Part shown: in pieces, positions 318 to 21,922 of the stretch
Layout of the letters: every line of letters starts with the position of its first letter
Numbering within the stretch: position 1 is the first letter of the stretch
Assembly (NCBI GenBank): GCA_030665585.1
Contig: DAOUZN010000002.1
Coordinates: 1-38,159, forward strand
DNA: 38,159 nucleotides
From: Deltaproteobacteria bacterium
GTDB lineage: Bacteria > Desulfobacterota > Desulfobacteria > Desulfobacterales > C00003060
Reading direction: 5' to 3'
Program-made: the position numbers and the translations under genes
Notes under the pieces: generated by a model
What the model was told of the DNA's origin: nothing
Seen by the model: only the letters and a program-made list of their open reading frames with translations
Database searches by the model: none

Positions 318-403
318 AAGCCCCGTCCTTTAGGACGGAGTCGAGGGGAGCTATGAAAAAACTGTTTTTCTTCCTTACCGGGAAGCCCCGCCCTTTAGGG
401 CGG
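318..403. repeat. Two direct copies of a small hairpin module, AAGCCCCG(T/C)CCTTTAGG(A/G)CGG
   Basis: Copies at 318-338 and 383-403. Each forms a 6-bp stem with a TTTA loop. This stretch is absent from the inverted partner at 4449-4600. Confidence 0.7.
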
Positions 404-427
404 GAAAAGCTTCACTTTTTTTGGATA

Positions 428-514
428 CGCTCGCTAACCCCGCAGCCCCGCTGGAACGGGATCTACACTTCGTTCCGACAAGCTACGGGGAATGCGCTCG
501 CTTTTGCGGTTCAA
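428..514. repeat. Repeat module B; inverted copy at 4449-4535
   Basis: 87 nt (CGCTCGCTAACCCCGCAGCCCCGCTGGAACGGG...GCTTTTGCGGTTCAA) appear identical to the reverse complement of 4449-4535. This explains the identical 30-aa string (SLTPQPRWNGIYTSFRQATGNALAFAVQ) in track ORFs 353-1036(+) and 4308-4538(-). Confidence 0.9.
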
Positions 515-544
515 TTCAGACCTTTTTACAGACCACAGGCTGAG

Positions 545-1036
545 ATGTCAAACAAGGGCCAAAGATTCCCTCTCGGCAGTTCGATCGAGACCCCGCCGGA
601 TCTGGTCAAAGAGATCATCTATCAGATACGCCGGCTCATTCAGGCCAGAGAGCTCTACACCAAGGAGCTGAGCAAGAAGTATTCAGTGACGGACGCACAA
701 CTTAACTGTGTTGTGGCCTTACAGGAGTGTGGCCCTTTGCGCCCCTCCCAGATTGCAGGGGTTATTATGGTGAAGTCCAGCACGGTGACGGGGATCATTG
801 ACCGTCTGGAACAAAAAGGGCTCGTGGTTAGGTTGAGGAACTCTCCAGACCGCCGTGCGATTACCATCGAGTTAACAGAAGCGGGAAAGAAACTCGCCGA
901 TAACGCCCCACCCCCTATCCAACAGAAGATCATGGATGGTCTTAGAGAACTTCCCAGGGCCCACATTGAGCGTATCGTGGATGGCCTCACCATGCTTACC
1001 CATATGCTCGACGTCCAGGATCTCGAAGTTGAATAG
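545..1036 (+). CDS. MarR-family winged-helix transcriptional regulator
   Basis: The MarR-like core is LNCVVALQECGPLRPSQIAGVIMVKSSTVTGIIDRLEQKGLVVRLRNSPDRRAITIELTEAGKK. Start is set at ATG 545 (MSNKG...), because the upstream part of track ORF 353-1036 is translated repeat DNA. Confidence 0.8.
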   Translation: MSNKGQRFPLGSSIETPPDLVKEIIYQIRRLIQARELYTKELSKKYSVTDAQLNCVVALQECGPLRPSQIAGVIMVKSSTVTGIIDRLEQKGLVVRLRNSPDRRAITIELTEAGKKLADNAPPPIQQKIMDGLRELPRAHIERIVDGLTMLTHMLDVQDLEVE

Positions 1037-1258: not shown

Positions 1259-1936
1259 ATGAACACGTTGGAAATCAACCCGAGTTTGGAGGAAGATGAT
1301 CTGGCCAGGCTTTTTGGGGGCGGCAAATCCTCTGGTTTCTCTCGCGGTGTTGCCCTGAGAATCGATAAACTGAAAGGGATATTGAAGAAATTGCTGACAC
1401 CTGAGTTATGTTATCGAAAGGTGAATATAGATTCGATCAACAATGGCTCAGTCTGTCTTCAAGGAGGTCCGAGCTTTAAGAGTCCGAAGCTTTCAAGAAC
1501 GTTGAAGAGTTGTGAGACAATCATATGTTTCATTGCCACTATCGGTTGTCAGATCGAAAAGGAGATCAGACAACTTACTAGCAGAAATGGTTTGGCAGGG
1601 GCGTACATTCTCGATTCCATGGGCTCTGTAGCGGTAGAGAGCATGGCCGAGAAATTCCACAGACGTATGGAAAGCCAGTACAAGGCGCAAGAAAAGGGGG
1701 TTACCTTGCGTTTTAGTCCAGGATACTGTGATTGGCCCGTCACAGAGCAAAAGAAGCTCTTCAACGTGTTCGATTCCTCTCAACTTGGAGTTACCCTCTC
1801 AGATTCCTGTCTTATGCAACCCCGCAAGTCTATTTCGGGCGTGTTTGGTGTTACGCCTTCCAATGGAAAGACTCCCGGCCAGTACAATCCCTGTACCGAT
1901 TGCAAGAAATACGATTGTATCGCCAGAAGAGGCTAG
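1259..1936 (+). CDS. Methionine-synthase (MetH) activation-domain-like protein (Met_synt_B12 family)
   Basis: LRFSPGYCDWPVTEQKKLFNVFDSSQLGVTLSDSCLMQPRKSISGVFG matches the SAM-binding RxxPGY...LF...G..LTES..M.P..SVSG pattern of the MetH reactivation domain. It is a stand-alone 225-aa protein with a Cys-rich tail (CTDCKKYDC). Confidence 0.65.
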   Translation: MNTLEINPSLEEDDLARLFGGGKSSGFSRGVALRIDKLKGILKKLLTPELCYRKVNIDSINNGSVCLQGGPSFKSPKLSRTLKSCETIICFIATIGCQIEKEIRQLTSRNGLAGAYILDSMGSVAVESMAEKFHRRMESQYKAQEKGVTLRFSPGYCDWPVTEQKKLFNVFDSSQLGVTLSDSCLMQPRKSISGVFGVTPSNGKTPGQYNPCTDCKKYDCIARRG

Positions 1937-2002: not shown

Positions 2003-3466
2003 ATGAAAACACGAAAAGGATTATCAGGGGGAAATTATAAACCCCTAAGCGATCAAGACATCGCAAGAATACACGAAACGAGCCTCAGGGTCTTCGCCGA
2101 GGTTGGTGTACAAGTGAATTTTGCTCCGGCAAGGGAGCTGTTTCGGGCTGCCGGTGCAGAGGTGGATGAGGCCAGCAGGGTTGTCAAGGTCCCTCCGGGT
2201 CTCGTGGAGGAACTGATCCACAAGGCGCCGCCTATGGTTCGCCTCTGCGGCCGGGAAGAAAACGGTGAGTTGGATTGTGAGATAGGTGGAAATGGGGTCT
2301 ATATGGGAACCGGCGGCACAGCTCTTAATGTACAAGACCCAGGATCGCAGGATTCCCGGAGAGCAACACTTCAAGACGTCGCGAATATGGCCCGCGTTGT
2401 AGATGCCTTGGACAATATCCACTTTTACATGCTCAATGTGTATCCGAACGATCTTCCTGGGGAAGAGGTGGATGTAAACCGCTTTGGGGCAGCTTTGAAC
2501 GCAACCCGAAAGCACGTGATGGGTGGAGTTTATACGCTTGAGGGCGTTAGAAACGTCATTAAGATGGCTGAGACGATCGCAGGATCTCCCGACAAGCTTA
2601 GAGAACGGCCATTCATATCCATGGTGACTTGCCTTATTAGTCCTTTCAAACTGGATGAGCAATATGCCCAACTTACCATGGAGGCAGCGCGCAACAGCAT
2701 CCCGGTGGTGGTGCCCACAGAACCTCTTTGTGGTGCAACAGCCCCAATCACCTTGGCCGGGAATCTTGTGGTTCAAAACGTGGACACGCTGTCCGGCGTC
2801 ATGTTGGCCCAACTCACTAATCCGGGCGCCCCTACACTGTATGGGTGCATATCTTCCATTACTGACCTGCGCGATATGAAGTATCTTTCTGGGGCCGTAG
2901 AAATGGGGTTGATGAATGCCGCTGCAGCGCAAATGGCGCAGTTCTACCTGCTTCCATACTACGCAACAGCGGGAATGTCCGATTCCAAGGTAAATGATGC
3001 CCAGGCAGGTTATGAATCAGCGATAACCAACCTGTTGGTTGCTCTTGCCGGGGGCAACTTGATCCATGATGCAGCCGGTTTTCTGGAATTCTGTATGACC
3101 GCCTCGTACGACAAGCTGGTCATCGACAATGAAATCATCGGCATGATCATGCGGGCCGTGGAAGGCATTCGAGTGGACAATGAAACCCTTGCTTTTGATT
3201 TGATTAAGAAAACAGGGCCTGGAGGACATTTCGTGTCTGCACGCCACACGCGGCGTCACATGCGTTCAGAGCAGTATCTGCCTGAGCTAAGCGACCGAGA
3301 AAACCGCAAGAAATGGGATGCAGAGGGCGCAAAGGATACTGCCGCCCGGGCTACCGAGAGAGTCGTTGAGATTCTAAACAACCCGGCAGAGCCGGCCATC
3401 CCATCAGATATTCGAGAACAGATAAGAAGAGAAATTCCGGGCTTGCGGTCCTTTGTCATGGATTGA
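2003..3466 (+). CDS. MttB-superfamily (trimethylamine methyltransferase-like) methyltransferase, non-pyrrolysine paralogue 1
   Basis: 487-aa uninterrupted ORF with a typical MttB-family N-terminus (LSDQDIARIHETSLRVFAEVGVQV) and length. There is no in-frame TAG. Confidence 0.8.
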   Translation: MKTRKGLSGGNYKPLSDQDIARIHETSLRVFAEVGVQVNFAPARELFRAAGAEVDEASRVVKVPPGLVEELIHKAPPMVRLCGREENGELDCEIGGNGVYMGTGGTALNVQDPGSQDSRRATLQDVANMARVVDALDNIHFYMLNVYPNDLPGEEVDVNRFGAALNATRKHVMGGVYTLEGVRNVIKMAETIAGSPDKLRERPFISMVTCLISPFKLDEQYAQLTMEAARNSIPVVVPTEPLCGATAPITLAGNLVVQNVDTLSGVMLAQLTNPGAPTLYGCISSITDLRDMKYLSGAVEMGLMNAAAAQMAQFYLLPYYATAGMSDSKVNDAQAGYESAITNLLVALAGGNLIHDAAGFLEFCMTASYDKLVIDNEIIGMIMRAVEGIRVDNETLAFDLIKKTGPGGHFVSARHTRRHMRSEQYLPELSDRENRKKWDAEGAKDTAARATERVVEILNNPAEPAIPSDIREQIRREIPGLRSFVMD

Positions 3467-3478
3467 GATTGATGATCT

Positions 3479-3614
3479 CGTAAAAAGTCATCAGGTGGAC
3501 GGCAAAGTAAAAAGCTCCAGATGCAAGGCGCGCAAATCTTGAGGAGTGAGGCGTACTTACGGTACGTCGCAACGACGAAAGATGAAGCGCAACGCCGCAG
3601 ATGGACTTTTTACG
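3479..3614. repeat. Small intergenic element with 11-bp terminal inverted repeats, CGTAAAAAGTC...GACTTTTTACG
   Basis: The arms at 3479-3489 and 3604-3614 are perfect reverse complements. The motif GACTTTTTACGA(G/A) also occurs at 149-160. Confidence 0.6.
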
Positions 3615-3642
3615 AAGCCGTCAAGATTGCAAGGGACGATCT

Positions 3643-4452
3643 ATGATCATTATTGGAGAGAAAATCAATGCTAGCCTGCCTGGCGTCAAGGCGATGATAA
3701 AGAAACGAGATGTGGCTGCGCTATTGGAACTGGCGAAAGCCCAAGCTGCGGCAGGGGCTAAATTCATTGATGTGAATGTGGCAACTGACACGGGTTCCCA
3801 TGACGACGAATTGCAGTCTATGAAATGGGCCGTTGAAACCATTCAGCAGCATATAGACACCCCTCTTTGTATTGACAGCGCAGACCCCGCGGTTCTCGAG
3901 GCAGGGCTGGAAGCGCGCCGTGGAAGGGCAACGCTTATCAACTCTGTCAAAGCCGACAACGAGCATCTGGCAGAGGTCGTGCCATTAGCCTATCATTATG
4001 AAAGCCTTCTTGTGGGCCTTGCCATGGACAAAACTGGCATTCCTAAGACAGTTGAGAAACGCCTCAAAGCCTGCGAGGAGATAGCAGGTGCCTGCGAAAT
4101 CCATAAGGTGCCCGTGGAAAGCATGTATTTTGACCCCTTGGTACTGCCGGTGAGTTCTGATGTGAAACAAGGGGTCGTGACCCTTGATACCCTTTCTGAG
4201 ATTAAGAAGCGATTCCCTGGAGCCAACACTGTGATGGGGCTTTCTAATGTATCATACGGGCTTCCCAAGCGTCCCAGACTCAACAGAGCCTTCTTGCACA
4301 TGGCCATTTATGCCGGCTTGGATGCCGCTATCATGGACCCCCTGGATGAAGAGCTGATGCTGGCGGTCAGGACAGGAGAAGCTTTGATGGGAAAGGATCG
4401 CTTTTGCAGACGGTATATGAGGGCCTTCCGAAAACAGGAGGCAGTTGTTTGA
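3643..4452 (+). CDS. Pterin-binding methyltransferase (methyl-corrinoid:tetrahydrofolate methyltransferase; MtrH / MetH pterin-domain type)
   Basis: MIIIGEKINAS...FIDVNV...PLCIDSADPAVLEAGLE...LINSV is a typical pterin-binding TIM-barrel signature. Start is set at ATG 3643, because the upstream part of the track ORF is repeat DNA. Confidence 0.75.
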   Translation: MIIIGEKINASLPGVKAMIKKRDVAALLELAKAQAAAGAKFIDVNVATDTGSHDDELQSMKWAVETIQQHIDTPLCIDSADPAVLEAGLEARRGRATLINSVKADNEHLAEVVPLAYHYESLLVGLAMDKTGIPKTVEKRLKACEEIAGACEIHKVPVESMYFDPLVLPVSSDVKQGVVTLDTLSEIKKRFPGANTVMGLSNVSYGLPKRPRLNRAFLHMAIYAGLDAAIMDPLDEELMLAVRTGEALMGKDRFCRRYMRAFRKQEAVV

Positions 4453-4640: not shown

Positions 4641-6203
4641 ATGGAGAATCAAGTGAACGAATCATTTCGTGAAGGGGTGCTGGTCAAGCCGTATGAACGC
4701 TTGAACCAGGAGCAGATCGAACAGCTGAATAGTGCTTCTTTGCAGATATTGGCTGATCCCGGAGTCTGGTGTTACAACGAACGGGCGGCCGACCTCTTTA
4801 AGGCTCACGGAGCTTCTGTTTCCGAGGAGCCTCAGACACAGGGTGTGTGTTGGCGTGTCAGCTTTCCTCCAGGTCTCGTTACCGAAGCCGTGGCTCAAGC
4901 ACCTTCCCGGATTGTCATGGGGGCAAGAAATCCGCAAAACAAGCTGGTTCTCGATGCCCAGGTGCCCCGTGTGTATTTCGGTTCCGGCTCGGAGGCCAAT
5001 GTGTGGATCGAAACCCAAATGAGGGAATTTGTGAGCGTTGAAGAGCCTCAATTGAAACGCCAGATTCCTAGTTTTACGGAGGTCAGGGGGAATTCAACGC
5101 TCCTTTGCCGAGCTGCCAAACTGTGTGAACGACTGGACCATCTTGATTTCTTCATCCGGCCATTGAATATCCAGGACCCGGATGTGACGTCAGACAATCA
5201 CGATGTGAACAAATTCTTTGCAAGCCTGAACAACATTACCAAGCATGTACAAGCAGGACTCACAAGTCTGGACAGACTCGGTGATGTTGTCCGGATGGCT
5301 GAGATCATTGCCGGCGGCCCGGAAGAGCTGAGGGCAAACCCGATCATTTCCTTCATTGCATGCGTGTTTAAGAGCCCGCTTCAGATGGTTGATGAAACGG
5401 TGGAGAAGGTCTTCGGCATTGTGGATGTCGGTCTCCCTGTGGTCATTTCCTCTTCTCCCCAAGGGGGATCTTCGGCTCCTATTCAGGAAGCCGGCATGGT
5501 GGCCCAGATCAACGCAGAGATTCTAGTCGGCATTACCCTAACCCAATTGATCAAACCGGGGAGCCCCGTACTGTATGGAAGCGTGCCTGTGCGGGCACGG
5601 CTTGACGACCTACACGACCTGTATGGCTGTCCCGAATTCAATCAATATAATATAGATTGTGTGCAAATGGCGCGCTTTTATGACGTGCCCAGCTATTCTT
5701 CCGCAGGGGTCGGAGATGCCAAGATTCCGGGCATGCAAGCTATTTATGAAAAGCTGTTTACCCATCTGTATATTGCCCTGAGCGGCGCTCAGTATATCCA
5801 CTACGCGTTCGGACTCCTTGACCGGACCAATAGCTTCTGTCCGTTGCAGGCGGTGCTCGACAATGAGCAAATTGGGAAAATCAAACACTGTCTTCGAGCG
5901 CCCAAAGTGGACGGTTCCGCAGTAGATGATACCCTCAAAATGGTAAAGAAGGTCATGGCATCCCCTTATCGGCTGTATGCACGGCATGCCCGCAAGGCAA
6001 TGCATGCCGGTGACATCTCAGATCCCTATCGCTTTGAGGCCAAGGGTCTGGAAGACAAGGTCCTGGAGAACGCCCTGGTCTATATGAACCAATTGGAGGC
6101 TGAACCGGCACCTCATCTGGACCAAAAAACGGTAGATCGGATCTTTGATGAGATACCGGGGCTCCTGCCGGGGCTTAGGCAGTCTGCAGGGCTCGGCAGT
6201 TGA
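4641..6203 (+). CDS. MttB-superfamily methyltransferase, non-pyrrolysine paralogue 2
   Basis: 520-aa uninterrupted ORF. The N-terminus LNQEQIEQLNSASLQILADPGVWC and overall length fit the MttB family. It is clearly divergent from paralogue 1. Confidence 0.75.
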   Translation: MENQVNESFREGVLVKPYERLNQEQIEQLNSASLQILADPGVWCYNERAADLFKAHGASVSEEPQTQGVCWRVSFPPGLVTEAVAQAPSRIVMGARNPQNKLVLDAQVPRVYFGSGSEANVWIETQMREFVSVEEPQLKRQIPSFTEVRGNSTLLCRAAKLCERLDHLDFFIRPLNIQDPDVTSDNHDVNKFFASLNNITKHVQAGLTSLDRLGDVVRMAEIIAGGPEELRANPIISFIACVFKSPLQMVDETVEKVFGIVDVGLPVVISSSPQGGSSAPIQEAGMVAQINAEILVGITLTQLIKPGSPVLYGSVPVRARLDDLHDLYGCPEFNQYNIDCVQMARFYDVPSYSSAGVGDAKIPGMQAIYEKLFTHLYIALSGAQYIHYAFGLLDRTNSFCPLQAVLDNEQIGKIKHCLRAPKVDGSAVDDTLKMVKKVMASPYRLYARHARKAMHAGDISDPYRFEAKGLEDKVLENALVYMNQLEAEPAPHLDQKTVDRIFDEIPGLLPGLRQSAGLGS

Positions 6204-6305: not shown

Positions 6306-6989
6306 ATGGAAAAACAGGAACTCCCAGACGAAATCGCGTTTAATGTTATTCAAGGCAGAGTAGAGGCTGAAGACGAAGGGGTTGACGAGGGTTTGGAAGG
6401 ACAGCCCGCTGTAACCGAATTGGTCCATCAGGCCCTTGAACAAGGGCTGAACCCGAAATCGATTGTCTTGGAAGGTTTGACCAAGGCCATGGATGAGGTA
6501 GGGGAAAAGTTTGAAAAAGGGGAATACCTTATCCCGGACATGCTCGCCTCGGCCGAGTGTGTGGGGGCGGCAATGGATATCTTGACCCCTCATCTGCTCA
6601 AGGCAGGCGTGGAAAGCAAGGGTAAGTTTGTTATTGCAACCGTAGCTGGTGATCTTCACGATATAGGTAAGAATATCGTGGCCATCATGCTCAAGGGTGC
6701 GGGCTATGAAATCATTGATTTGGGGGCCGATGTCCCCTCAGGCCGGATCATCGACGCGGTAAAGGAGCACCAGGCCCCCTTTTTGGGGCTGTCAGCCTTG
6801 CTTACCACCACGATGCGCGTGATGGGAGACGTTATCGACAAACTCAAGGACGAAGGTATGCGAGATAAAGTGAAGGTGTTCATCGGTGGGGCTCCCACAT
6901 CTCCCGAGTTTGCCGATCAGATCGGTGCTAATGCCCACTGCGCAGACGCTTTCCAGGCCATTGACATATTAAAGACGATGGCTATTTGA
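6306..6989 (+). CDS. Corrinoid (cobalamin-binding) methyl-carrier protein
   Basis: DxHxxG B12-binding motif (GDLHDIGKNIV) followed by SALLTTTM and GGAP motifs. An N-terminal helical cap domain is present. 227 aa. Confidence 0.85.
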   Translation: MEKQELPDEIAFNVIQGRVEAEDEGVDEGLEGQPAVTELVHQALEQGLNPKSIVLEGLTKAMDEVGEKFEKGEYLIPDMLASAECVGAAMDILTPHLLKAGVESKGKFVIATVAGDLHDIGKNIVAIMLKGAGYEIIDLGADVPSGRIIDAVKEHQAPFLGLSALLTTTMRVMGDVIDKLKDEGMRDKVKVFIGGAPTSPEFADQIGANAHCADAFQAIDILKTMAI

Positions 6990-7056: not shown

Positions 7057-8316
7057 ATGACAGAGAAGAAAGCTTACTCTCAAGCGGCGACCACAGGAAA
7101 ATACGACAAATCCACAGGGCTGTTGGGCAAATACGATAACGTGAGGAAGTTTTGGGAAGACCAGGTGACTGGTATCTTTTTGCGCCCCCCGTTAAGCGAA
7201 CTCGTGAAGCGAAAGAGGCAACGGCTTGAGCGGATTCGTATCCTGGACCTGGGTTGCGGCAGCGGCGACGGGTATGACCTGCTGACTGGTGTAACCACTA
7301 AAGATCCGGGCATATATGAATATATCACAGCCGCTCTCACCCCGGACATGGTCAGGGAATATGTGGGGGTTGACATCAATGAGGACCTGCTAAGTCAGGC
7401 CGCGTCCACATACGGTCATATCCCGAAGGTACATTTCGTCTGTGATGATATGTCAGAAGGCCTGCCTGCTGCCATGGTAGATGAAGAGCCCTTTGACGTC
7501 TATTTTACCTCTTTTGGTACACTTTCGCACTTTCACCACGATCAGAGCGTGAAATTGATCGCCGACATTTGCAAACATGCACCAGACGGCGCTATCTTCA
7601 TGGGGGATTGGTTGGGTCGATACTCCTACGAGTGGCAGGAACTGTGGCACCATCCGGCCGACAAGGAATACTTCATGGACTACCGGATTTCGTACATATA
7701 CCCAAATGAAGAACGGGACGATGCTGAGGTCGCTGTTTTCCCTCTCCGACTCGTGTCGCAAGACGAGGTCAGGGCCATGATAAAAGAAGCAGAAAAGGTC
7801 TCCGGCACAAAGATCAAGCCAATCATATTTTTTGATCGCTCGATCTTGATTGGAAGGCACATGGATACAGGAGACTACAACAAGAACTGTCCCAAGCTGA
7901 GGAGGGCCGTGAACTCGCTTTTCGAGAGTTACGTGCGAACGGACCTGGAGAGCCTTCTGGTGGACTACGTGCCCAGGCCAGGTTTTGATCACCTCAACAA
8001 TTTTTTTGAGATGCTTTTCATGTGTTCTAACGCCTTGGTCAAGTATACGATCAGCGTGCTCAGCCAGTACGACTCGCAAAATGGAGATCTGCATTCTGTT
8101 GATGATGTGCTCCCTTTCTACCCGGATCCACTCAAAGAGGCCATGCACTCCATGCGACGGGTGATTGAAGGCGTGGGTTGGCTCAAATGGGGAGATGTGC
8201 GAGCCAATGTCATAGAGGCACAGCTCGGATATTGCCTCCGAAAACTGGAGATGGATATTCAGCCCGGAAAAGGCATGGGTCATGGCCTTGTGGGAATATT
8301 TGAAATTCGCAAGTAA
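7057..8316 (+). CDS. Class I SAM-dependent methyltransferase with a large uncharacterised C-terminal region
   Basis: Motif I is ILDLGCGSGDG, followed by an acidic loop (VGVDIN) and FTSFGTLSHF. 419 aa, roughly the last 200 aa not recognised. It lies 67 bp downstream of the corrinoid protein gene. Confidence 0.7.
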   Translation: MTEKKAYSQAATTGKYDKSTGLLGKYDNVRKFWEDQVTGIFLRPPLSELVKRKRQRLERIRILDLGCGSGDGYDLLTGVTTKDPGIYEYITAALTPDMVREYVGVDINEDLLSQAASTYGHIPKVHFVCDDMSEGLPAAMVDEEPFDVYFTSFGTLSHFHHDQSVKLIADICKHAPDGAIFMGDWLGRYSYEWQELWHHPADKEYFMDYRISYIYPNEERDDAEVAVFPLRLVSQDEVRAMIKEAEKVSGTKIKPIIFFDRSILIGRHMDTGDYNKNCPKLRRAVNSLFESYVRTDLESLLVDYVPRPGFDHLNNFFEMLFMCSNALVKYTISVLSQYDSQNGDLHSVDDVLPFYPDPLKEAMHSMRRVIEGVGWLKWGDVRANVIEAQLGYCLRKLEMDIQPGKGMGHGLVGIFEIRK

Positions 8317-8339
8317 AAGATAAGGAAGGAGGAATTCAT

Positions 8340-9857
8340 ATGGGGGGTTTTGTTGTTTACCGGGGAAAATCCGATCGAAAAACCCTAGAAGACATGTTCG
8401 AAAAGATAGAACATCGAGGACGATACACCTCAGGCATCTTCGAGAACAACGGCACGTTCATGGCCCAGAATTATCTTGAGGCCGACGGCGCTGGGGATGG
8501 CAGCAGTATTATTCCAGTAAGGAGTTCTTCGAACCCAAATCTCAGGATCTGTTATGATGGCCAGATAGGGAATAGCAGGGAACTGGTGCGTGCTTGTGGG
8601 ATATCTGAGGGGCCCTTCAGCGAGGAACGCTTGCTTCTCCACCTGTACGAAAAACACGGTTTCGATATGTTGGACCGTCTGAATGATGCCATCTTCGCCT
8701 TCGTTATTTCTGACGGCGAGGATTTTTTTGCAGCACGCGATGTTTTGGGCATCAAGACACTCTTTTATGGCTCAAAGAACGGAACGATGTACCTTTCCTC
8801 GGAACTGAAGAGCATCTTGGAGGTAACAGAAGACGTCCGGGAGTTTCCACCCGGACACCATATGGACCGGCAATGTGTTTTCGGGCGGTTTGCGGCACTC
8901 CCCCAGGCCCCACCAGAAAGCTTGGACATTGAACCTGAGGGAATGGCGAAAGAAATCCACACTATGATCCAGCGGAGCCTCCGCAACCGTGTCGACTTCC
9001 GTCTTCCAACAGGAAGCCTCCTCAGCGGTGGCATCGACAGCAGCGTGATCGCCTGCTTGGCCAGTGAGGCCTATAGGGAAAAGTTCGGAAAAGATGCCCA
9101 ACTCAAGACCTTTGCCCTGGGCGTTGGAGAAAGCGAGGATATCAAGAACGCTAGGGCAATGGCTGAACACATCAATTCAGATCATCATGAATTGATTGTG
9201 GATCTTGAACAGATTCTCGCAGTCTTACCCCACGTGATCTATCATCTGGAGTCATTCGACCCCTCCTTGGTTCGAAGTGCAGCTTCAAACTACCTCATCT
9301 CCCGACATGCCAGTGATCATGGCATCCAGGTGCTTCTGTCCGGTGAGGGAGGAGATGAGGTGTTTTGCGGATATACCTACTTGAAGGACTTCCCTTTGGA
9401 GGAGCAGTTCTCGCGCCAGGTAGAATGTCTGGGATTTTTGCATAACAACGCCTCATTGCGGCTGGATCGCATGAATTTGTGCCACGGCGTTCGAGTTGTA
9501 GCTCCTCTCATATCAGGGGAATTGCTCAACTACGCCCTGGCCATTCCTCCGAAATACAAGCAAATGCCAACGGAAGATGGAAAGATCGAGAAATGGATCT
9601 TCCGAAAAGCCTTTGAGGCAATGTTGCCAAGAAAGGTGGCTTGGCGAACCAAACAGGAATTTTCACAGGGATCAGGATCTGCAGGAGTACTGCCGGCCCA
9701 TTTTGAAGAGACCGTAACGGACGAAGAGTTGGCCCAAGCCCAGGCAGAGCACCCTATCGTCCGAAGTAAGGAAGAACTACACTACTTCCGAATTTTCACA
9801 GAGCATTTCGGCTCAGGTCAAGCCGTCAACACAGTGGGGCAGTGGATATCTCTGTGA
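8340..9857 (+). CDS. Asparagine synthetase B-like PP-loop ATP-dependent amidoligase with a degenerate glutaminase domain
   Basis: PP-loop SLLSGGIDSSVIACLA and an AsnB-like C-terminal domain. The N-terminus is MGGFVVY instead of MC(G/S)I, so the Cys nucleophile is absent, and NGEIYN is replaced by DGQIGN. It starts 23 bp after the preceding methyltransferase gene and has an AGGAAGGAGGA RBS. Confidence 0.75.
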   Translation: MGGFVVYRGKSDRKTLEDMFEKIEHRGRYTSGIFENNGTFMAQNYLEADGAGDGSSIIPVRSSSNPNLRICYDGQIGNSRELVRACGISEGPFSEERLLLHLYEKHGFDMLDRLNDAIFAFVISDGEDFFAARDVLGIKTLFYGSKNGTMYLSSELKSILEVTEDVREFPPGHHMDRQCVFGRFAALPQAPPESLDIEPEGMAKEIHTMIQRSLRNRVDFRLPTGSLLSGGIDSSVIACLASEAYREKFGKDAQLKTFALGVGESEDIKNARAMAEHINSDHHELIVDLEQILAVLPHVIYHLESFDPSLVRSAASNYLISRHASDHGIQVLLSGEGGDEVFCGYTYLKDFPLEEQFSRQVECLGFLHNNASLRLDRMNLCHGVRVVAPLISGELLNYALAIPPKYKQMPTEDGKIEKWIFRKAFEAMLPRKVAWRTKQEFSQGSGSAGVLPAHFEETVTDEELAQAQAEHPIVRSKEELHYFRIFTEHFGSGQAVNTVGQWISL

Positions 9858-9985
9858 GTCATTCTATGTAAGAAGAAAGGTGCCCATAAAAAAGACCAAA
9901 CAGGCTACACATGTAGGGAGGTGACTTAGGGACGTCTATGATTTTATGCTTTATATTGGGAAAAAGAAAGTGATAATGACGAGGC

Positions 9986-10051
9986 ATGCCAAGAAAAGCA
10001 AGGATAGACACGCCTGGAGCTTTCCATCATATCATCATCAGGGGCATAGAC
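9986..10051 (+). pseudogene. Fragment 1 of a Y1 (IS200/RAYT-like) transposase, first ~22 codons only
   Basis: MPRKARIDTPGAFHHIIIRGID matches the conserved N-terminus of the IS200-like / REP-associated tyrosine transposase family. Similarity stops exactly where repeat R1 begins. Confidence 0.6.
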
Positions 10052-10115
10052 TCGAACGGGACGGTCATGCATTTATGCGTTTTACTTGGAGCCAAATGAT
10101 GGTATGGGCATGACC
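10049..10115 (+). repeat. 67-bp direct repeat R1 (partner R2 at 10829-10895)
   Basis: GACTCGAACGGGACGGTCATGCATTTATGCGTTTTACTTGGAGCCAAATGATGGTATGGGCATGACC versus R2, with about 58 of 67 positions identical by eye. The offset is exactly 780 bp. Confidence 0.85.
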
Positions 10116-10307
10116 ATGCCGCGGAGAGCCCGGATAGATGCCCCCGGTGCGTTGCATCATGTTATTTGCCGGGGAATTGAGCGTCAGGTGATCTTTCAGG
10201 ATAATGCCGAGAGGGATGATTTTGTTAACAGGCTTGGCAGAATCCTGAGTGAGACCTCAACACCGTGTTATGCCTGGGCATTGATCCCGAATCACCAGTT
10301 ATGTTGA
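10116..10307 (+). pseudogene. Fragment 2 of a Y1 (IS200/RAYT-like) transposase, N-terminal ~60 aa, truncated
   Basis: MPRRARIDAPGALHHVICRGIERQVIFQDNAERDDFVNRLG...LIPNH then a stop. The family normally continues NHFHLL..., so the catalytic C-terminal part is missing. Confidence 0.65.
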
Positions 10308-10383
10308 GCTCAACATAAAAAATGGGTAACGAGTGGGACATTCAGCAGGAATGGGCAGCTGCCTAACGTAAGGTCACACATTG

Positions 10384-10782
10384 ATGAAGTACTATAGTGT
10401 TTATGTGAGGGTTGATTTGGACGAGCCACTGGAAATGCCTCCGCTCCGGAACTCCACAAAGCCTTGGTATTCCGTTGGCTATTTCCAAACCTTCTTCTGC
10501 ACCGAGAAATCCAAAGATAAGGCCAAGATGCTCGTTTGTGACTACTTCAAGAGCCAAAAAGAAAAACCCAATTCTTACAAGTTGACATTTGAGCGAATCG
10601 CATGGATGCGATGGATTACAAAACGTGAGCAGATCGCTTTTGGCTTGACGGCCGATCTTACGGAGGAGATGTTTTCCAAAAGAGACCAAATCGGAATCTG
10701 GTATGCAGGTGACAAGGAACACTTCGTAAGCGGGGAAGACTACGCCGTCACTATGCTGGAGGAATACAACGAGAACTTATAA
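10384..10782 (+). CDS. Hypothetical protein (132 aa from ATG 10384), no recognisable family
   Basis: Clean ORF in a visibly AT-richer stretch. No motif recognised. It lies between the two R repeats. Confidence 0.4.
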   Translation: MKYYSVYVRVDLDEPLEMPPLRNSTKPWYSVGYFQTFFCTEKSKDKAKMLVCDYFKSQKEKPNSYKLTFERIAWMRWITKREQIAFGLTADLTEEMFSKRDQIGIWYAGDKEHFVSGEDYAVTMLEEYNENL

Positions 10783-10790
10783 CAACCGAG

Positions 10791-10840
10791 CGCGTCAAAC
10801 GCGCGTCAAACGTCAAACGACTCAAACGGACTCAAACGGG
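10791..10840 (+). repeat. Iteron-like cluster of five TCAAACG units
   Basis: CGCGTCAAACGCGCGTCAAACGTCAAACGACTCAAACGGACTCAAACGGG. The last unit merges into repeat R2. Confidence 0.7.
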
Positions 10841-10895
10841 ACGGTCATGCATTTATGCGTTTTGTTTGGGGCGAAATCATGGTATGGGCGTGAAC
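10829..10895 (+). repeat. 67-bp direct repeat R2 (partner R1 at 10049-10115)
   Basis: See R1. R2 replaces the 5' part of higB. Confidence 0.85.
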
Positions 10896-11066
10896 AATGC
10901 TGCACCAAGATTAAATGATCTACGAATTCCGCCGGGTAATCAATTTGAGACTTTGAAAGGTGACCGTAAAGGCCAACACAGCATACGAATCAACGACCAA
11001 TGGCGGATATGTTTCAAATGGAGCGATGGCGATGCGTATGATGTTGAAATCACAGATTATCATTAG
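10866..11066 (+). pseudogene. higB: 5'-truncated HigB-type (RelE/ParE superfamily) toxin remnant
   Basis: The C-terminal two thirds are typical (PPGNQFETLKGDRKGQHSIRINDQWRICFKWSDGDAYDVEITDYH), but about 35-40 N-terminal residues are missing. The track ORF begins with TTG inside repeat R2. Confidence 0.6.
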
Positions 11067-11075
11067 GAGAATCCT

Positions 11076-11384
11076 ATGAAAAAGAAAAAGCTTCCTCCTA
11101 TCCATCCAGGCGAAATTCTTATTGATGAATTCTTAGAGCCCATGGGGATCAGCCAATACCGGCTGTCCAAGGATATAAGTGTACCCCCAAGGCGCATAAA
11201 CGAAATTGTGCATGGAAAAAGATCCATTACTGCAGATACTGCCCTTCGTTTGGGACGGTTTTGCGGCATGTCACCTCAGTTTTGGCTAAATCTCCAGACG
11301 CGTCATGATCTTGAAGTGACTGAGGATTTGCTTGAGGACCGGCTTGATGGTGAGGTACACCCTCTTCAAGTCCAAACAGGATAA
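11076..11384 (+). CDS. higA: HigA-type antitoxin, XRE-family HTH
   Basis: IHPGEILIDEFLEPMGISQYRLSKDISVPPRRINEIVHGKRSITADTALRLGRFCGMSPQFWLNLQ is the canonical HigA/VapI pattern. It starts 9 bp after the higB remnant. Confidence 0.85.
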   Translation: MKKKKLPPIHPGEILIDEFLEPMGISQYRLSKDISVPPRRINEIVHGKRSITADTALRLGRFCGMSPQFWLNLQTRHDLEVTEDLLEDRLDGEVHPLQVQTG

Positions 11385-11645
11385 TATGTACTGAGGTTAC
11401 AACCTTGCTGATGAAGATGGACTGGAAAAAACCTGGCGGTTTTCCCCAGCCACTTATCAGCCCGTTGATAACATAGGGTATATCGTCATTTTTTGACCGA
11501 GAAATCCGCCAAGACTGAGTTAGCCAGCCACAGCCCCATTCCAAATCTGACGTCCTTTACCCTGATGACTGCTTTCGAGAATCTTGGTTCCCCGAACTGC
11601 ACCTCAAGGGTTTGGCAAACGCCGTAATATCAACTAGATCTCTAC

Positions 11646-12500
11646 TTGACATGGAATCATGCGGTAGAGCACATACGGCTTTTTGGCACCGCAAATCAAA
11701 GTCAGGCCGAAAACAAGCAACCGAGATCTGAATCAGCGAACCAGGCGGGGCAGCAGGCATTGACCAAGGACATATTCTTCGAAATACACCGAGACCTTCC
11801 AAGGGAGGGCCCCGGAAGAAACGAATACACAAGAAAGGCATTCCGGATGCTTCCCGTATCGGACAACCCTCGTATCTTGGATGTGGGCTGCGGCCCCGGG
11901 GGCCCGACTCTGGAACTTGCTAGGTTGAGTCATGGGCAGGTAGTAGGATTGGACATCCACCAGCCTTACCTAGATGAACTCACGAGAAAGATCGAACAGG
12001 CAGGACTCTCGGACCGTGTCAAGGCTGTCAACTGCTCTATGTTCGAGATGGATTTTGCGGATGAGAGCTTCGACATCATCTGGGCTGAAGGCTCCATATT
12101 CATCATTGGTTTTGAAAGGGGCCTCAATGAGTGGCGGCGGTTCCTTAAGCCCAATGGGTTCTTGGTGGTCCATGAGATGACTTGGTTGCGTCCAGATCCC
12201 CCACAGGAGATCTTCGACTACTGGAAGTCGTCCTATCCTGGGATCAGCTCCGTCTCAGAGAACCTGGAACGGCTCCGTGGCTGCCTCTACCACCTTATCG
12301 GCCATTTCACATTGCCCGAGGATGCCTGGTGGCTTGAGTATTATAGGCCTCTCGAAAAGCGAATCCGGCAGCTTCGCGTGAAATATGTCGATGACTCTGA
12401 GACTCTTGTCGTGTTAGACAAAGAACAACGTGAGATAGATTTGTATAGGAAGTACCACAAGTGGTATGGCTCTGTGTTTTTTGTTATGAAGAAGAGATAA
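11646..12500 (+). CDS. Class I SAM-dependent methyltransferase
   Basis: Motif I is ILDVGCGPGGPTLELA, followed by VVGLDI and FDIIWAEGSIF. The track start is TTG and no in-frame ATG lies nearby, so the start is uncertain. Confidence 0.7.
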   Translation: MTWNHAVEHIRLFGTANQSQAENKQPRSESANQAGQQALTKDIFFEIHRDLPREGPGRNEYTRKAFRMLPVSDNPRILDVGCGPGGPTLELARLSHGQVVGLDIHQPYLDELTRKIEQAGLSDRVKAVNCSMFEMDFADESFDIIWAEGSIFIIGFERGLNEWRRFLKPNGFLVVHEMTWLRPDPPQEIFDYWKSSYPGISSVSENLERLRGCLYHLIGHFTLPEDAWWLEYYRPLEKRIRQLRVKYVDDSETLVVLDKEQREIDLYRKYHKWYGSVFFVMKKR

Positions 12501-12708
12501 TAAGAGTTCAACGTGGTAGGGAAACTGTGGGTCTTGAGAGCTCTACACTTCAGGGTCGTAAAGGAGAAAGTATTGTCAGTCTAGCCACTCGCCAAAACGA
12601 ACCCAAATTGCTGCTTAGATTGGTCCACTTGGCTCGAAGGTCGTCGGTGTTTAAGCAAGTGATCCAGGGAGTTCTCCGGCACAACCCAGTGGACTGCCGA
12701 CTATGGGC

Positions 12709-14457: not shown

Positions 14458-14860
14458 GGCCTTATGACTCCTTTCTCCCTTGTGTGATGGTGCGATAAAG
14501 AGCCCTCGACGGATAACTTATGCCTAATTTGGTCAAAAACCGCAAGGGCTTGCGCTGATCTCTCATGATTGGGCACCGCCTGAGCTCATCCCGGTCACGG
14601 GGGTCTCTGTCAATTTTATGACGAATGGTCGCGCCCACGGGCAGAAGGCGTTCATCTTCTCATGACCCTGACCAACAGGTGTTTCTTTGCCTCCCGGTCT
14701 GGGCCCTGCCAGTGAAGGCCCCCTGGCCGTCCGCTCCACCCGTATTGACCTTGGTGAATGGCATGGCTTTTGCTGGATCTAACAAAGAAATCAACGGGAT
14801 TGGTCTGGCTGAACTTGCGATTAGACCTTGGTGGTGTGTGGCAGGGAAATCACAAAACGT

Positions 14861-16747: not shown

Positions 16748-16749
16748 GC

Positions 16750-21903: not shown

Positions 21904-21922
21904 TGCAAGCTCCCTTTCCAGG

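Follow-up and report, generated by a model that had tools for sequence, protein, structure and literature searches.

The window, that is, the whole 38,159-nt stretch of DNA that was analysed, carries a conserved eight-gene operon, of which the genes at 7057–8316 and 8340–9857 are the final two. The eight genes lie in the following order:

353..1036, + strand, MarR-family regulator (PF01047, E 1.8e-14), opening the conserved locus
1259..1936, + strand, stand-alone homologue of the MetH activation domain (PF02965, E 4.7e-11)
2003..3466, + strand, MttB1, non-pyrrolysine MttB-family methyltransferase (PF06253, E 1.3e-109)
3601..4452, + strand, pterin-binding methyltetrahydrofolate:corrinoid methyltransferase (PF00809, E 5.2e-24)
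4641..6203, + strand, MttB2, divergent non-pyrrolysine MttB-family protein (PF06253, E 8.3e-58)
6306..6989, + strand, corrinoid (B12-binding) protein (PF02310 and PF02607)
7057..8316, + strand, class I SAM-dependent methyltransferase, 419 aa, ATG start (Pfam and profile comparisons)
8340..9857, + strand, putative adenylating amide synthetase derived from AsnB, without glutaminase, 505 aa, 'type 1', ATG start

The original prediction had described the last two open reading frames, their lengths, their shared direction and the gaps of 67 nt (corrinoid gene to methyltransferase) and 23 nt (methyltransferase to AsnB-like gene), all of which were confirmed. The MarR homologue occupied the same position in 20 related loci, and the MetH-activation-like gene, the first gene of the operon, was kept in 34–36. 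By analogy with MetH, the product of the latter is predicted to reactivate the corrinoid protein via SAM-dependent reductive methylation. The product of 3601..4452 scored 300 bits against NF005719, above the cutoff of 259, and the corrinoid protein was MtgC-like, with an NF047996 score (215 bits) under the cutoff. No promoter or terminator signals joining or separating the genes were found above chance.

MttB1 has Met325 at the pyrrolysine position (codon 2975–2977), and an in-frame stop was looked for in its reading frame and was absent. Its TIGR02369 score was 489.5 bits, below the cutoff of 525, and the Rfam model PYLIS_3 matched positions 2975–3074, with the UAG of the model aligned to AUG. 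MttB2 has Val at the pyrrolysine position, the same being seen in 76 of 77 orthologues. To our knowledge, MttB-family enzymes are known as demethylases only. In every catabolic system, methyl-cobamide methylates N5 of THF. The characterised non-pyrrolysine MttB enzymes all act on quaternary amines (PMC13080624, PMC8604678), and the characterised relatives are demethylases feeding methyl-THF (PMC8604678, PMC12155760). In Ruegeria, one corrinoid/pterin core serves both directions of methyl transfer (PMC12478193). At the positions of MtgB R312 and H348, which bind the substrate carboxylate (PMC13080624), MttB1 has Tyr/Asp and MttB2 has Tyr/Tyr.

The AsnB-like protein matched Asn_synthase (E 1e-61) and, weakly, GATase_7 in Pfam. 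It begins MGGFVVY, carries the PP-loop SGGIDSS, and has YDGQIGN at the position of VNGEIYN in E. coli AsnB. An in-frame TGA lies 13 codons before the ATG, and the 12 intervening codons include no ATG, GTG or TTG, so that no start can supply Cys1. A GGAGG lies 8 nt 5' of the ATG. The claim that the protein has neither an upstream start nor Cys1 was confirmed. Alignment to E. coli AsnB gave the changes C1 to G, R49 to Y, N74 to D, E76 to Q and D98 to E, and the last four mean that the whole glutamine-binding set is replaced. Among full-length homologues (n=115), position 1 was Ser in 104, Ala in 9 and Gly in 1, and R49Y, N74D, E76Q and D98E were kept across the Cys-less clade. The predicted loss of the nucleophile and of glutamine binding therefore holds clade-wide and goes beyond the residues originally listed.

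The protein retains the PP-loop and E348, D351, E352, Y357, R387, K429 and K449 (E. coli AsnB numbering), with the synthetase-site changes D384A and K376C. We take E348, D351 and D384 of E. coli AsnB to correspond to E364, D367 and D400 of human ASNS. In the human enzyme these three residues form the pocket for the charged amino group of the substrate (PMC6748925); D384 of this pocket is the residue replaced by Ala here. The Cys-less clade keeps the adenylation site and the cation-binding acid cluster.

Similarity was by far the closest to true AsnB (E 5.5e-59), followed by beta-lactam synthetase (5.6e-17) and CarA (6.6e-9), and the NF006949 (AsnB) score was 376 bits, below the cutoff of 499. 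Like its best PDB and NCBIfam match, AsnB (E. coli, PDB 1CT9; human ASNS, 6GQ3), the protein has a two-domain build and an SGGxDS PP-loop, and it presumably forms an acyl-adenylate that is then attacked by nitrogen. Unlike AsnB, it has Gly in place of Cys1 (Ser or Ala in orthologues), the swapped glutamine set and the two synthetase-site changes, and its gene does not stand alone but belongs to a corrinoid methyltransferase operon. Descent from AsnB, loss of the glutaminase and reuse of the adenylation domain are shared with beta-lactam and carbapenam synthetases (1JGT, 1Q15) and lasso cyclases. Unlike these enzymes, it keeps the AsnB-type E348, and besides the distant E-values to the two synthetases, the clavam, carbapenem and lasso partner genes are absent. 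It was rejected as a lasso-peptide cyclase (NF033535, 123 bits, cutoff 525) and as a macrolactam cyclase (model score 45, cutoff 300), and neither the window nor any related locus yielded a lasso precursor or B-protease, in agreement with the earlier view that this is not a lasso system.

Cys1 mutants of E. coli AsnB reportedly retain ammonia-dependent synthesis. The place after the methyltransferase is taken in some loci by an AsnB that has Cys1 and passes the NCBIfam cutoff of 499 with 575 bits, and for this reason the AsnB-like step is probably an ordinary amidation using free ammonia and not exotic chemistry. For the product of 8340..9857, the predicted nitrogen source is ammonia or a small amine. 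The statement that AsnB homologues without Cys1 make no asparagine was too strong, as E348, D351, E352, R387 and K449 are kept and the protein is nearest to true AsnB.

For the methyltransferase, Pfam returned class I methyltransferase matches only, across residues ~50–200 (Methyltransf_25, E 1.4e-9), and no match to the C-terminal half. The AlphaFold model (pLDDT 92.9) has the Rossmann sheet running on through strands 180–187, 205–210, 227–233 and 252–261, followed by a helical lid of ~120 aa (281–401) and a last strand (410–418) back in the sheet. The '~200-aa unrecognised C-terminal half' of the original prediction thus stands as a region without a Pfam match but not as a separate domain. 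With 310 clusters at 50% identity the family is a small one, and it is uncharacterised; PDB comparison of the protein gave no specific relative. With the family profile, the best characterised PDB matches were phosphoethanolamine N-methyltransferases (PMTs; E 1.7e-6), these being weak and partial (27–30 bits). In the alignment, the near-invariant His158 of the family falls on the histidine in the LHLS segment of PMTs, and Tyr16 at the N-terminus is also near-invariant. In PMTs, a trimethylammonium group arises through successive SAM-dependent N-methylations. The class I fold, the helical lid and the aligned conserved His are common to the window protein and PMTs (PfPMT, 3UJ6/4R6W); unlike PMTs, it has 419 aa against ~260 aa and no phosphobase context, and the similarity covers ~100 residues and a short lid segment. 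By this resemblance the product of 7057..8316 is predicted to be an N-methyltransferase, though it may instead methylate O, S or C.

The methyltransferase family search returned 79 genomic loci from Desulfobacterota, Planctomycetota, Kiritimatiellia, Lentisphaerota, Verrucomicrobiota and Dehalococcoidia. In all 66 loci with enough flank, from at least five phyla, the 2.6 kb upstream of the methyltransferase contained an MttB gene, and MttB1 and MttB2 are the pair preceding the methyltransferase gene in all related loci. The core synteny stays while the outer flanks differ. The proposed linkage to MttB/corrinoid genes elsewhere was therefore found far more often than had been expected, and the description of the two genes as 'appended' was wrong, the methyltransferase being as conserved in the locus as the MttBs themselves. 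An ATP-dependent amide ligase of either kind was found in 35 of 37 well-flanked loci: an AsnB-family gene in 29, and a GCL-like carboxylate-amine ligase replacing it in six of the remaining eight. Ten loci add ProA and the GCL-like ligase. The methyltransferase directly follows the corrinoid protein gene in Desulfobacterota and MttB2 in PVC-group loci, where the corrinoid protein and pterin methyltransferase are usually not nearby. In several genomes a second MttB cluster with its own RACo/RamA activator adjoins. The genomes that carry the locus belong to energy-limited anaerobes, many of which come from saline sediments.

Fusions of the AsnB-family enzyme and the methyltransferase were found in P0277 (934 aa), P0278 (901 aa) and P0391–P0393 (901–949 aa), and four further contigs have the two as separate genes that overlap or touch, which argues for functional coupling. 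A reading of the two as chance neighbours, a housekeeping asparagine synthetase and an unrelated methyltransferase with no tie to the corrinoid genes, could appeal to the very large superfamilies involved and to promoter and terminator signals no better than chance, but is effectively refuted by cross-phylum synteny despite differing flanks, the fusions, 100% adjacency and the 23 nt from stop to start.

The fusion-type operons include a ProX/OpuC-type ABC importer and are adjoined by MscS channels, Usp and MarC; one Usp-methyltransferase fusion was also found. On six contigs the AsnB, methyltransferase and importer genes occur without an MttB or corrinoid gene. A ProV-like ATPase, a permease and an OpuAC-type binding protein were present in 47 of 81 MttB-linked loci and five of six fusion-type loci. 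The binding protein was nearest to ProX, OsmF, OpuCC and EgtUC, all of which bind trimethylammonium compounds. The 'methylated amine, betaine or amide metabolite' proposed originally fits the fusions, the importer and the weak PMT similarity.

Several known systems share parts of this arrangement. In MtgBCA, MtpB, MtcB, MtyB and Ruegeria MtgBCD, too, a non-pyrrolysine MttB is combined with a corrinoid protein and a pterin methyltransferase, and an osmoprotectant importer is encoded close by. Unlike MtgBCA-type systems, the locus has two co-inherited MttB paralogues, both without the MtgB carboxylate binders, and MetH-type rather than RamA-type reactivation; unlike any described one, it has an obligatory SAM methyltransferase and amide ligase. 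In B. subtilis OpuB/OpuC with GbsAB, an OpuC-type importer is genetically coupled to solute-producing enzymes, and NAGGN synthesis (AsnO-Ngg) relies on an AsnB-family amidotransferase for the terminal amide of the osmolyte. Here there is no GbsAB or Ngg, the TIGR03104 score is 119 (cutoff 570), and methylation is included. The suggested resemblance to diphthamide, with trimethylation by Dph5 and amidation by Dph6, is an analogy of formal chemistry only (a trimethylammonium group and ATP/ammonia-dependent amidation of a neighbouring carboxylate): Pfam searches gave no Dph5/Dph6 homology, Dph5 is a class III methyltransferase, Dph6 belongs to another PP-loop family, and the target there is a protein side chain.

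The pair is conserved and uncharacterised, and is accompanied by a betaine-type transporter and, in anaerobes, without exception by vitamin-B12-dependent MttB. The explanation we favour, tentatively and with somewhat less than even confidence, is that a quaternary-ammonium carboxamide solute is built or remodelled by SAM N-methylation together with amidation from ammonia; the MttB/corrinoid/THF module would exchange its methyls with the C1 pool. Building on the observed gene structure, residue losses, operon conservation, fusions and transporter association, the methyltransferase and the AsnB-like enzyme would share one small-molecule target, a quaternary-ammonium ('betaine-type') solute. The AsnB-like enzyme would use ATP at its intact PP-loop to adenylate the carboxylate of an aspartate-like acid, whose positive, possibly N-methylated, nitrogen would be held by the E348/D351/E352 cluster. 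The acyl-adenylate would be converted to a carboxamide by free ammonia or a small amine; glutamine would not be used because the N-terminal domain lacks the nucleophile and all four glutamine-binding residues. The methyltransferase would methylate the amino nitrogen with SAM, PMT-like, giving a trimethylammonium head group. MttB1, MttB2, the corrinoid protein and the pterin methyltransferase would shuttle N-methyls between the compound, or less methylated forms of it, and methyl-tetrahydrofolate, with the MetH-activation-like protein repairing oxidised corrinoid using SAM. Which atom is methylated, which acid is used, what donates the nitrogen and which way methyl groups flow via the MttBs are all inferred. 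The net role would be to make or remodel a compatible-solute-like trimethylammonium amide, beyond methyl harvest for energy.

An anabolic or stress role is favoured by the expenditure of ATP or SAM by both enzymes, the MscS/Usp/MarC context and the MetH-type repair. Against the favoured explanation, an operon-embedded importer is more typical of consuming an imported compound than of de novo synthesis, the PVC-group arrangement and the two loci with neither amide ligase do not fit, and a SAM methylase and a demethylase for one compound within a single operon would look like a futile cycle unless each handled a different methylation state or both worked the same way round. A literature search found no natural product such as 'asparagine betaine'.

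The importer, embedded in or beside the operon, could instead indicate that the operon only harvests methyls from an imported betaine and that the pair readies the substrate for the MttBs. Amidation of the betaine carboxylate would then fit it to MttB pockets with Tyr/Asp and Tyr/Tyr in place of the Arg/His binders (PMC13080624), and the methyltransferase would re-quaternise a tertiary amine or block another group. This would also agree with all characterised relatives being demethylases that feed methyl-THF (PMC8604678, PMC12155760). We consider it unlikely, as ATP (to AMP) and SAM spent per molecule would exceed what a sulfate reducer gains from the methyl group, SAM methylation followed by demethylation of the same nitrogen yields zero net gain, and the six contigs carry the pair and importer without MttB or corrinoid genes.

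A sharper sub-case of the favoured explanation has MttB1 and MttB2 running 'backwards', N-methylating an amine from methyl-THF-derived methyl-corrinoid and so sparing SAM, which the methyltransferase would spend only on the step beyond methyl-cobamide. It is consistent with a repair domain of MetH and not RACo type, the presence of only the methyltransferase in organisms without MttB, the energy-limited, often saline-sediment lifestyle of the carriers, the methylation of THF N5 by methyl-cobamide in catabolic systems and the bidirectional pterin/corrinoid core of Ruegeria (PMC12478193). Since no MttB-family enzyme is known to run that way, the thermodynamics of quaternisation by methyl-THF are uncertain, and the corrinoid and pterin genes are not nearby in PVC loci, this direction is rather doubtful.

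The NCBIfam family 'corrinoid protein-associated methyltransferase CpaM' may act in corrinoid repair or priming. If the methyltransferase did likewise, passing a SAM methyl to Co(I)/Co(II), the AsnB-like protein could be an unrelated ammonia-dependent asparagine synthetase. The gene position after the corrinoid protein in Desulfobacterota and a weak CpaM match of the P0277 methyltransferase part (29 bits, cutoff 180) are compatible with this. It is nevertheless improbable: the window methyltransferase did not match CpaM, a MetH-type activation domain is already encoded in the operon, the methyltransferase family occurs in fusions with AsnB and beside the importer on contigs without corrinoid genes, and in PVC loci it follows MttB2.

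A protein or peptide target is very improbable, whether MttB or the corrinoid protein (a side-chain amide and methyl, comparable to diphthamide or the modifications of methyl-coenzyme M reductase), a RiPP/lasso product or a free pyrrolysine stand-in. In its favour, peptide carboxylates are substrates of some AsnB-like enzymes, the lasso cyclases, the TIGR02369 score and PYLIS_3 match place MttB1 close to the TMA methyltransferase, though without pyrrolysine, and ProA with the GCL-like ligase in ten loci could yield a pyrroline carboxylate derivative. The low lasso and macrolactam cyclase scores, the lack of a conserved precursor or protease gene in the related loci and the occurrence of the module without MttB speak against it, and the importer and stress-gene context favours a free solute.

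With a quaternary-ammonium amide as the favoured product, the gene associations suggest that a methylated, osmolyte-like compound carrying an amide is handled by a pathway not yet described.

Eight co-directional genes, all on the plus strand, were located within the first 10 kb of the window:

353-1036, plus strand, MarR regulator
1259-1936, plus strand, stand-alone homologue of the MetH activation domain (PF02965)
2003-3466, plus strand, MttB1, an MttB-family protein (PF06253, E 1.3e-109)
3601-4452, plus strand, pterin-binding methyl-THF:corrinoid methyltransferase (NF005719, 300 bits, above the cutoff)
4641-6203, plus strand, MttB2, a second MttB-family protein (PF06253, E 8.3e-58)
6306-6989, plus strand, corrinoid protein
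7057-8316, plus strand, MT, a class I SAM methyltransferase of 419 aa
8340-9857, plus strand, AsnBL, an AsnB-like protein of 505 aa

The observations that the original prediction had made on the sequence of the last two genes were all correct: gaps of 67 and 23 nt precede MT and AsnBL, respectively, the N-terminus of AsnBL is MGGFVVY, and Cys1 is absent. A GGAGG motif lies 8 nt upstream of the AsnBL ATG. The scan for promoters and terminators gave counts close to the shuffled expectation (15 found, against means of 10.3 for promoter-like and 11.6 for terminator-like elements) and hence no usable evidence for or against co-transcription. The MetH activation-domain homologue (1259-1936, plus strand) heads the operon, in the place where a RamA/RACo-type activator might be expected.

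Beyond AsnBL, the next ~1.8 kb (9858-11645) contained short ORFs only, of up to 119 aa on the minus strand and 133 aa on the plus strand. These ORFs had no family match and the segment no Rfam match; it may be degraded sequence or the remnant of a mobile element. The window also encodes another class I methyltransferase, unrelated to MT (11646-12500, plus strand; weak matches to the DVU_1556 family and CpaM), and a sodium:alanine symporter (12709-14457, minus strand), about 2 kb beyond the operon; neither is conserved in the related loci. Further along, the heme b synthase AhbD (574 bits) was found beside porphobilinogen synthase (20803-22900, minus strand). The pair represents the siroheme-dependent haem route, which sulfate reducers typically use, and agrees with a Desulfobacterota origin of the window.

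To place the operon in context, one genome per species was scanned, returning 79 MT loci. Among the carriers were two isolates, Desulfoferrobacter suflitae DRH4 (L025) and Desulfatitalea alkaliphila M08but (L033, a locus without the AsnB gene), the MAGs Eth-SRB1 and Eth-SRB2, and many further MAGs, with soda-lake, hypersaline, hydrothermal and marine sediments represented. Based on tblastn with the window proteins, the gene order MetH-activation, MttB1, pterin methyltransferase, MttB2, corrinoid protein, MT, AsnBL is common to Desulfobacterota and Dehalococcoidia, and the order in the PVC group is MttB1-MttB2-MT; the outer flanks are unrelated between loci. An MttB gene was present no more than 2.6 kb upstream of MT in every locus with enough flank (66/66), so the proposed link of the pair to MttB genes in other genomes was borne out and had been understated.

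Several loci showed variations on this arrangement. In L008, a second corrinoid methyltransferase cluster (13268-17830; pterin methyltransferase and corrinoid protein) follows the AsnB-like gene. The same cluster was seen in L035, L042, L084 and L016, partly cut by contig ends, and a related one in L055. Where the contig extends, the cluster continues with two more distant MttB paralogues and a RACo activator, its own RACo gene being visible in L008 and L035. In the Dehalococcoidia locus L096 (GCA_011170375.1, 11647-15067), and likewise in L095, a glycyl-radical enzyme and its activase come directly after the seven-gene operon. The L096 enzyme (824 aa) scored under every NCBIfam equivalog cutoff, its top matches being the PFL2-3 subfamily, sulfopropanediol dehydratase, HypD and CutC. 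A conceivable role is cleavage of the operon's presumed quaternary amine, or of a related one. Lastly, L011, a 9,380-bp contig labelled 'archaeon', carries an operon that looks circularly permuted (MttB2, corrinoid protein, MT, AsnBL, MarR, MetH-activation, MttB1, pterin methyltransferase) with 70-81% identity to the Desulfobacterota versions. This contig was probably mis-binned, or its assembly wrapped around.

In asparagine synthase B, the nucleophile is Cys1, exposed once Met has been removed. The AsnBL frame contains a TGA 13 codons upstream of the start and no ATG, GTG or TTG in between, which rules out an alternative start that would supply Cys1. Alignment to E. coli AsnB (L086) gave the replacements C1G, R49Y, N74D, E76Q and D98E, in line with the anticipated loss of Cys1, Asn74 and Asp98. 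The residues that take the place of R49, N74, E76 and D98 (Tyr, Asp, Gln and Glu, respectively) were found in 37/37 aligned orthologues of type 1, the Cys-less kind to which AsnBL belongs. This shared pattern marks the predicted loss of glutaminase activity as ancient and clade-wide, and because the four replacement residues are themselves conserved, it suggests that the remodelled glutamine pocket has a new role and has not merely decayed. At position 1, the 115 full-length AsnBL homologues had mostly Ser (104), with Ala in 9 and Gly in 1. Ser1 as a substitute Ntn nucleophile was rejected, since the position varies among these three residues and the glutamine-binding residues are all replaced.

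In the synthetase site, AsnBL retains the PP-loop (SGGIDS), E348, D351, E352, Y357, R387, K429 and K449 (E. coli AsnB numbering), together with two replacements, K376C and D384A, that are constant throughout the type-1 clade. The roles of the PP-loop and of E348, D351, E352, R387 and K449 were taken from the literature on human ASNS, in which E364, D367 and D400 form the pocket for the charged amino group of the aspartyl-AMP intermediate (PMC6748925). Mapped onto E. coli AsnB, these three residues correspond to E348, D351 and D384, of which AsnBL keeps the first two and has Ala for the third. Such a pocket would fit an aspartate-like acid with a bulkier nitrogen, for example an N-methylated one.

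The best solved relative of AsnBL was E. coli AsnB (E 5.5e-59), and the protein scored below the cutoffs of both asparagine synthase models (376.2 against 499 bits for NF006949; 258.9 against 267.1 for TIGR01536). Other members of the superfamily were rejected in turn. Beta-lactam synthetase and carbapenam synthetase (CarA) matched at only 5.6e-17 and 6.6e-9, respectively, and no clavam or carbapenem gene context was found at the window or the related loci. Against the model for the NAGGN amidotransferase AsnO (TIGR03104), AsnBL reached 119.3 bits (cutoff 570.1), and no Ngg-like gene was present among the conserved neighbours of the related loci. For the lasso peptide cyclase (NF033535), the score was 122.9 bits against a cutoff of 525, with no lasso precursor or B-protease genes adjoining in the window or the 79 related loci. 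The macrolactam cyclase (NF033561; 44.8 bits, cutoff 300) and the XrtA-type amidotransferase (score far under the cutoff) fared no better. Diphthamide enzymes of the Dph5/Dph6 type were also sought, and neither MT nor AsnBL matched a diphthine synthase or diphthine-ammonia ligase in Pfam or NCBIfam.

Three kinds of AsnB relatives were found at the MT locus. Type 1 is shared at 60-79% identity across Desulfobacterota, some Planctomycetota and Dehalococcoidia. Type 2 starts with MCGI, has a complete set of glutamine-site residues, scores 574.9 bits (above the AsnB cutoff of 499) and in some loci (L001, L009) directly follows MT. Type 3, from the PVC group, is Cys-less and approximately 30% identical to AsnBL. 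The simplest reading is that of a single amidation step, run on glutamine by type 2 or on free ammonia by type 1. As an interpretation of the pair, the original prediction was partly right, in proposing a methylated amine, betaine or amide metabolite and no lasso peptide; its premise that Cys-less AsnB homologues do not make asparagine-type amides was overstated. The type-1 protein of L096 is 67% identical to that of the window, compared with 41% for MT and 54-58% for the MttBs, and this high conservation suggests either strong constraint or separate horizontal transfer of the gene.

For the frequency of these genes, 37 well-flanked loci (at least 7 kb upstream and at least 5 kb downstream) were considered. 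An AsnB-family gene was present in 29 of them, directly after MT in 20 of the 29; in eight loci type 1 adjoined another, less closely related AsnB-family paralogue. Eight loci had no AsnB-family gene, and in six of these a GCL-like carboxylate-amine ligase was present instead. With one or the other in 35/37 loci, an ATP-dependent amide-forming ligase is near-obligatory at MT loci, and its family is exchangeable. The GCL-like ligase adjoins a ProA gene in several loci, as in L030 (set at 11279-14000; ProA a genuine glutamate-5-semialdehyde dehydrogenase, 509 bits) and also L046, L050, L053, L067 and L068. The ligase of these loci had no Pfam match, and a DUF362/4Fe-4S protein joins the two genes in some of them. 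The ProA/GCL-like set is co-conserved with MT across phyla, mostly where an AsnB-family gene is absent.

The MT family is narrow, comprising 310 clusters (50% identity) at E<=1e-3 among 1.84 billion representatives; nearly all members are full-length at 400-430 aa, and the 120 top-ranked close homologues share 69% identity or more. Motif I reads LDLGCGSGDG, with D64, G66 and G68 invariant and D106 and D131 near-invariant. An AlphaFold (AF2) model built from 62 diverse family members (pLDDT 92.9) predicted a single class I Rossmann domain with a helical lid of ~120 residues, and not two domains, so that the ~200-aa C-terminal half described originally as an unrecognised part did not emerge as a separate unit. 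Foldseek against the PDB returned many class I methyltransferases at probability 1.0, all generic, with TM-scores normalised to the query of 0.42 at most and no functional assignment from structure. In a profile search of PDB sequences, the top characterised relatives were phosphoethanolamine N-methyltransferases (PMTs; E 1.7e-6). In the alignment, the near-invariant His158 faces the histidine of the PMT 'LHLS' segment, part of the lid aligns with its PMT counterpart, and Tyr16 is near-invariant too; in PfPMT, a Tyr/His pair forms the catalytic dyad. These matches give a weak lead, and the only functional one, that MT may be an N-methyltransferase building a trimethylammonium group. CpaM (NF043040, cutoff 180) was rejected: the window MT had no match at E<=0.01, and the MT part of the fusion protein P0277 reached 28.8 bits.

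Several proteins of 901-949 aa were found to consist of an AsnB with Cys1 present (566 bits to the AsnB model) fused to MT; another four contigs encode this AsnB type and MT as two distinct genes, overlapping or abutting. No MttB or corrinoid genes were present in the fusion-type contigs. In 5/6 of the fusion-type contexts, the next genes encode an ABC ATPase of the ProV type and a permease that carries a fused OpuAC binding domain; MarC often comes after these, with MscS channels or Usp genes nearby, and one Usp-MT fusion was found. A homologous transporter was present in 47/81 MttB-linked loci. In the closest relatives of the window (L008-L010, L042), it is divergent and just upstream of MarR, a position that in the window would fall just past the left edge. 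The proteins most similar to its binding protein are ProX, OsmF, OpuCC and EgtUC, which binds ergothioneine; all four recognise a trimethylammonium group. Together, the fusions, the minimal module and the transporter indicate that MT and the AsnB-type enzyme share one metabolite, of the quaternary-ammonium class, and the MttB-free modules indicate that the MttB/corrinoid genes were added to the module in anaerobes. Very probably, MT and the AsnB-type enzyme are coupled in function, as one module that acts on a quaternary-ammonium solute. A plasmid search for a cultured carrier of the fusion-type methyltransferase found nothing closer than Streptomyces homologues at 28% identity, whose context was uninformative. 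An ergothioneine-like pathway, with the GCL-like ligase, neighbours with an FGE-sulfatase domain and the EgtUC-like binder as its parts, was set aside: the FGE genes are not conserved neighbours, and MT has no EgtD-type methyltransferase match in Pfam or NCBIfam.

MttB1 and MttB2 are PF06253 TIM barrels with a sense codon at the pyrrolysine position (Met325 and Val357, respectively). Among MttB1 orthologues, this position was Met in 38, Thr in 20, Ile in 5 and Val in 1, the Thr and Ile forms being from other phyla, and no MttB1 or MttB2 orthologue had a stop codon there. Inside MttB1, Rfam PYLIS_3 matched at 2975-3074 (plus strand) with 65.1 bits (gathering score 38), the UAG of the model aligning to the AUG of Met325, the exact pyrrolysine codon position. 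With AUG in place of UAG and no orthologue carrying a stop, a recoding signal was rejected; the match appears to reflect coding homology to pyrrolysine-type mttB genes and, at the level of sequence, shows MttB1 to be a close non-pyrrolysine derivative of the TMA methyltransferase. In MtgB, specificity for glycine betaine resides in R312, H348 and F356, of which R312 and H348 hold the carboxylate (PMC13080624). Based on phmmer alignments to 2QNE and 7XCL, the three positions are Tyr, Asp and Cys in MttB1; MttB2 has Tyr at the first two, the counterpart of F356 being uncertain. As the carboxylate binders are not kept, the substrate of MttB1 and MttB2 is probably something other than a simple carboxylate betaine; an amide would fit.

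From these components a specific mechanism can be put forward, tentatively and with confidence somewhat short of even. AsnBL would adenylate the carboxylate of an aspartate-like acid, which ammonia would convert to the amide, and MT would N-methylate the amino group with SAM. MttB1, MttB2, the corrinoid protein and the pterin enzyme would link the N-methyl groups to methyl-THF, with the MetH-like domain repairing the corrinoid cofactor. As to direction, an anabolic role, or one that converts an imported precursor, is favoured, because MT and AsnBL consume high-energy cofactors whose cost methyl oxidation could hardly repay in a sulfate reducer, because the neighbours of the minimal module are osmotic-stress genes, because reactivation is of the MetH type and the adjacent second MttB cluster of several genomes has its own RACo/RamA activator, and because a corrinoid/pterin core can work in both directions (PMC12478193). 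The main weakness of this view is that the importer embedded in the operon and the entire biochemical precedent for MttB enzymes point to catabolism. A single operon with both a methylase and a demethylase for one nitrogen also calls for a special explanation: the two would need different methylation states, or would both have to run in the methylating direction.

In the form of the anabolic role that goes furthest, the operon would be a methionine-synthase-like N-methylation machine. The MttBs, drawing on methyl-cobamide derived from methyl-THF, would act in the methylating direction alongside the SAM methyltransferase and an ammonia-dependent AsnB relative, yielding a new trimethylammonium-carboxamide compatible solute in energy-limited anaerobes (Desulfobacterota, Planctomycetota, Kiritimatiellia and Dehalococcoidia). 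We consider this unlikely; if true, the MttB superfamily would gain its first biosynthetic role, and the product of the pathway would be a new osmolyte as well. That ProA, the ligase and MT together make a small-molecule mimic of pyrrolysine is only remotely conceivable, given that ProA and the GCL-like ligase occur in just 10/81 loci and that the MT/AsnB module also occurs without MttB.

Both MT and AsnBL belong to known superfamilies. In the literature searched, no counterpart of the Cys-less AsnB clade, of the MT family or, above all, of their obligatory association with a specific MttB pair was described; searches on MttB with asparagine synthase and methyltransferase, on CpaM and on AsnB residue names returned nothing relevant, nor did those on 'asparagine/aspartate/glutamine betaine'.

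Quaternary amines are major methyl sources for the production of methane, acetate and sulfide in anoxic sediments and the gut. To our knowledge, the MttB superfamily is the only anaerobic route that takes methyl groups off them, and we know of no substrate for most of its members. With this locus, a widespread MttB subsystem is defined: at least five phyla carry it, in many cases in marine, hypersaline or soda-lake sediments. A SAM methyltransferase always accompanies it and an ATP-dependent amide ligase nearly always; we know of no described MttB system with these components. The remodelled pocket of the AsnB-like clade suggests binding of a new ligand there. Solving the locus would assign a function to a small orphan MT family and to a glutaminase-dead AsnB clade, and would reveal either a new betaine-type solute and its turnover or biosynthetic work by MttB-family corrinoid methyltransferases.
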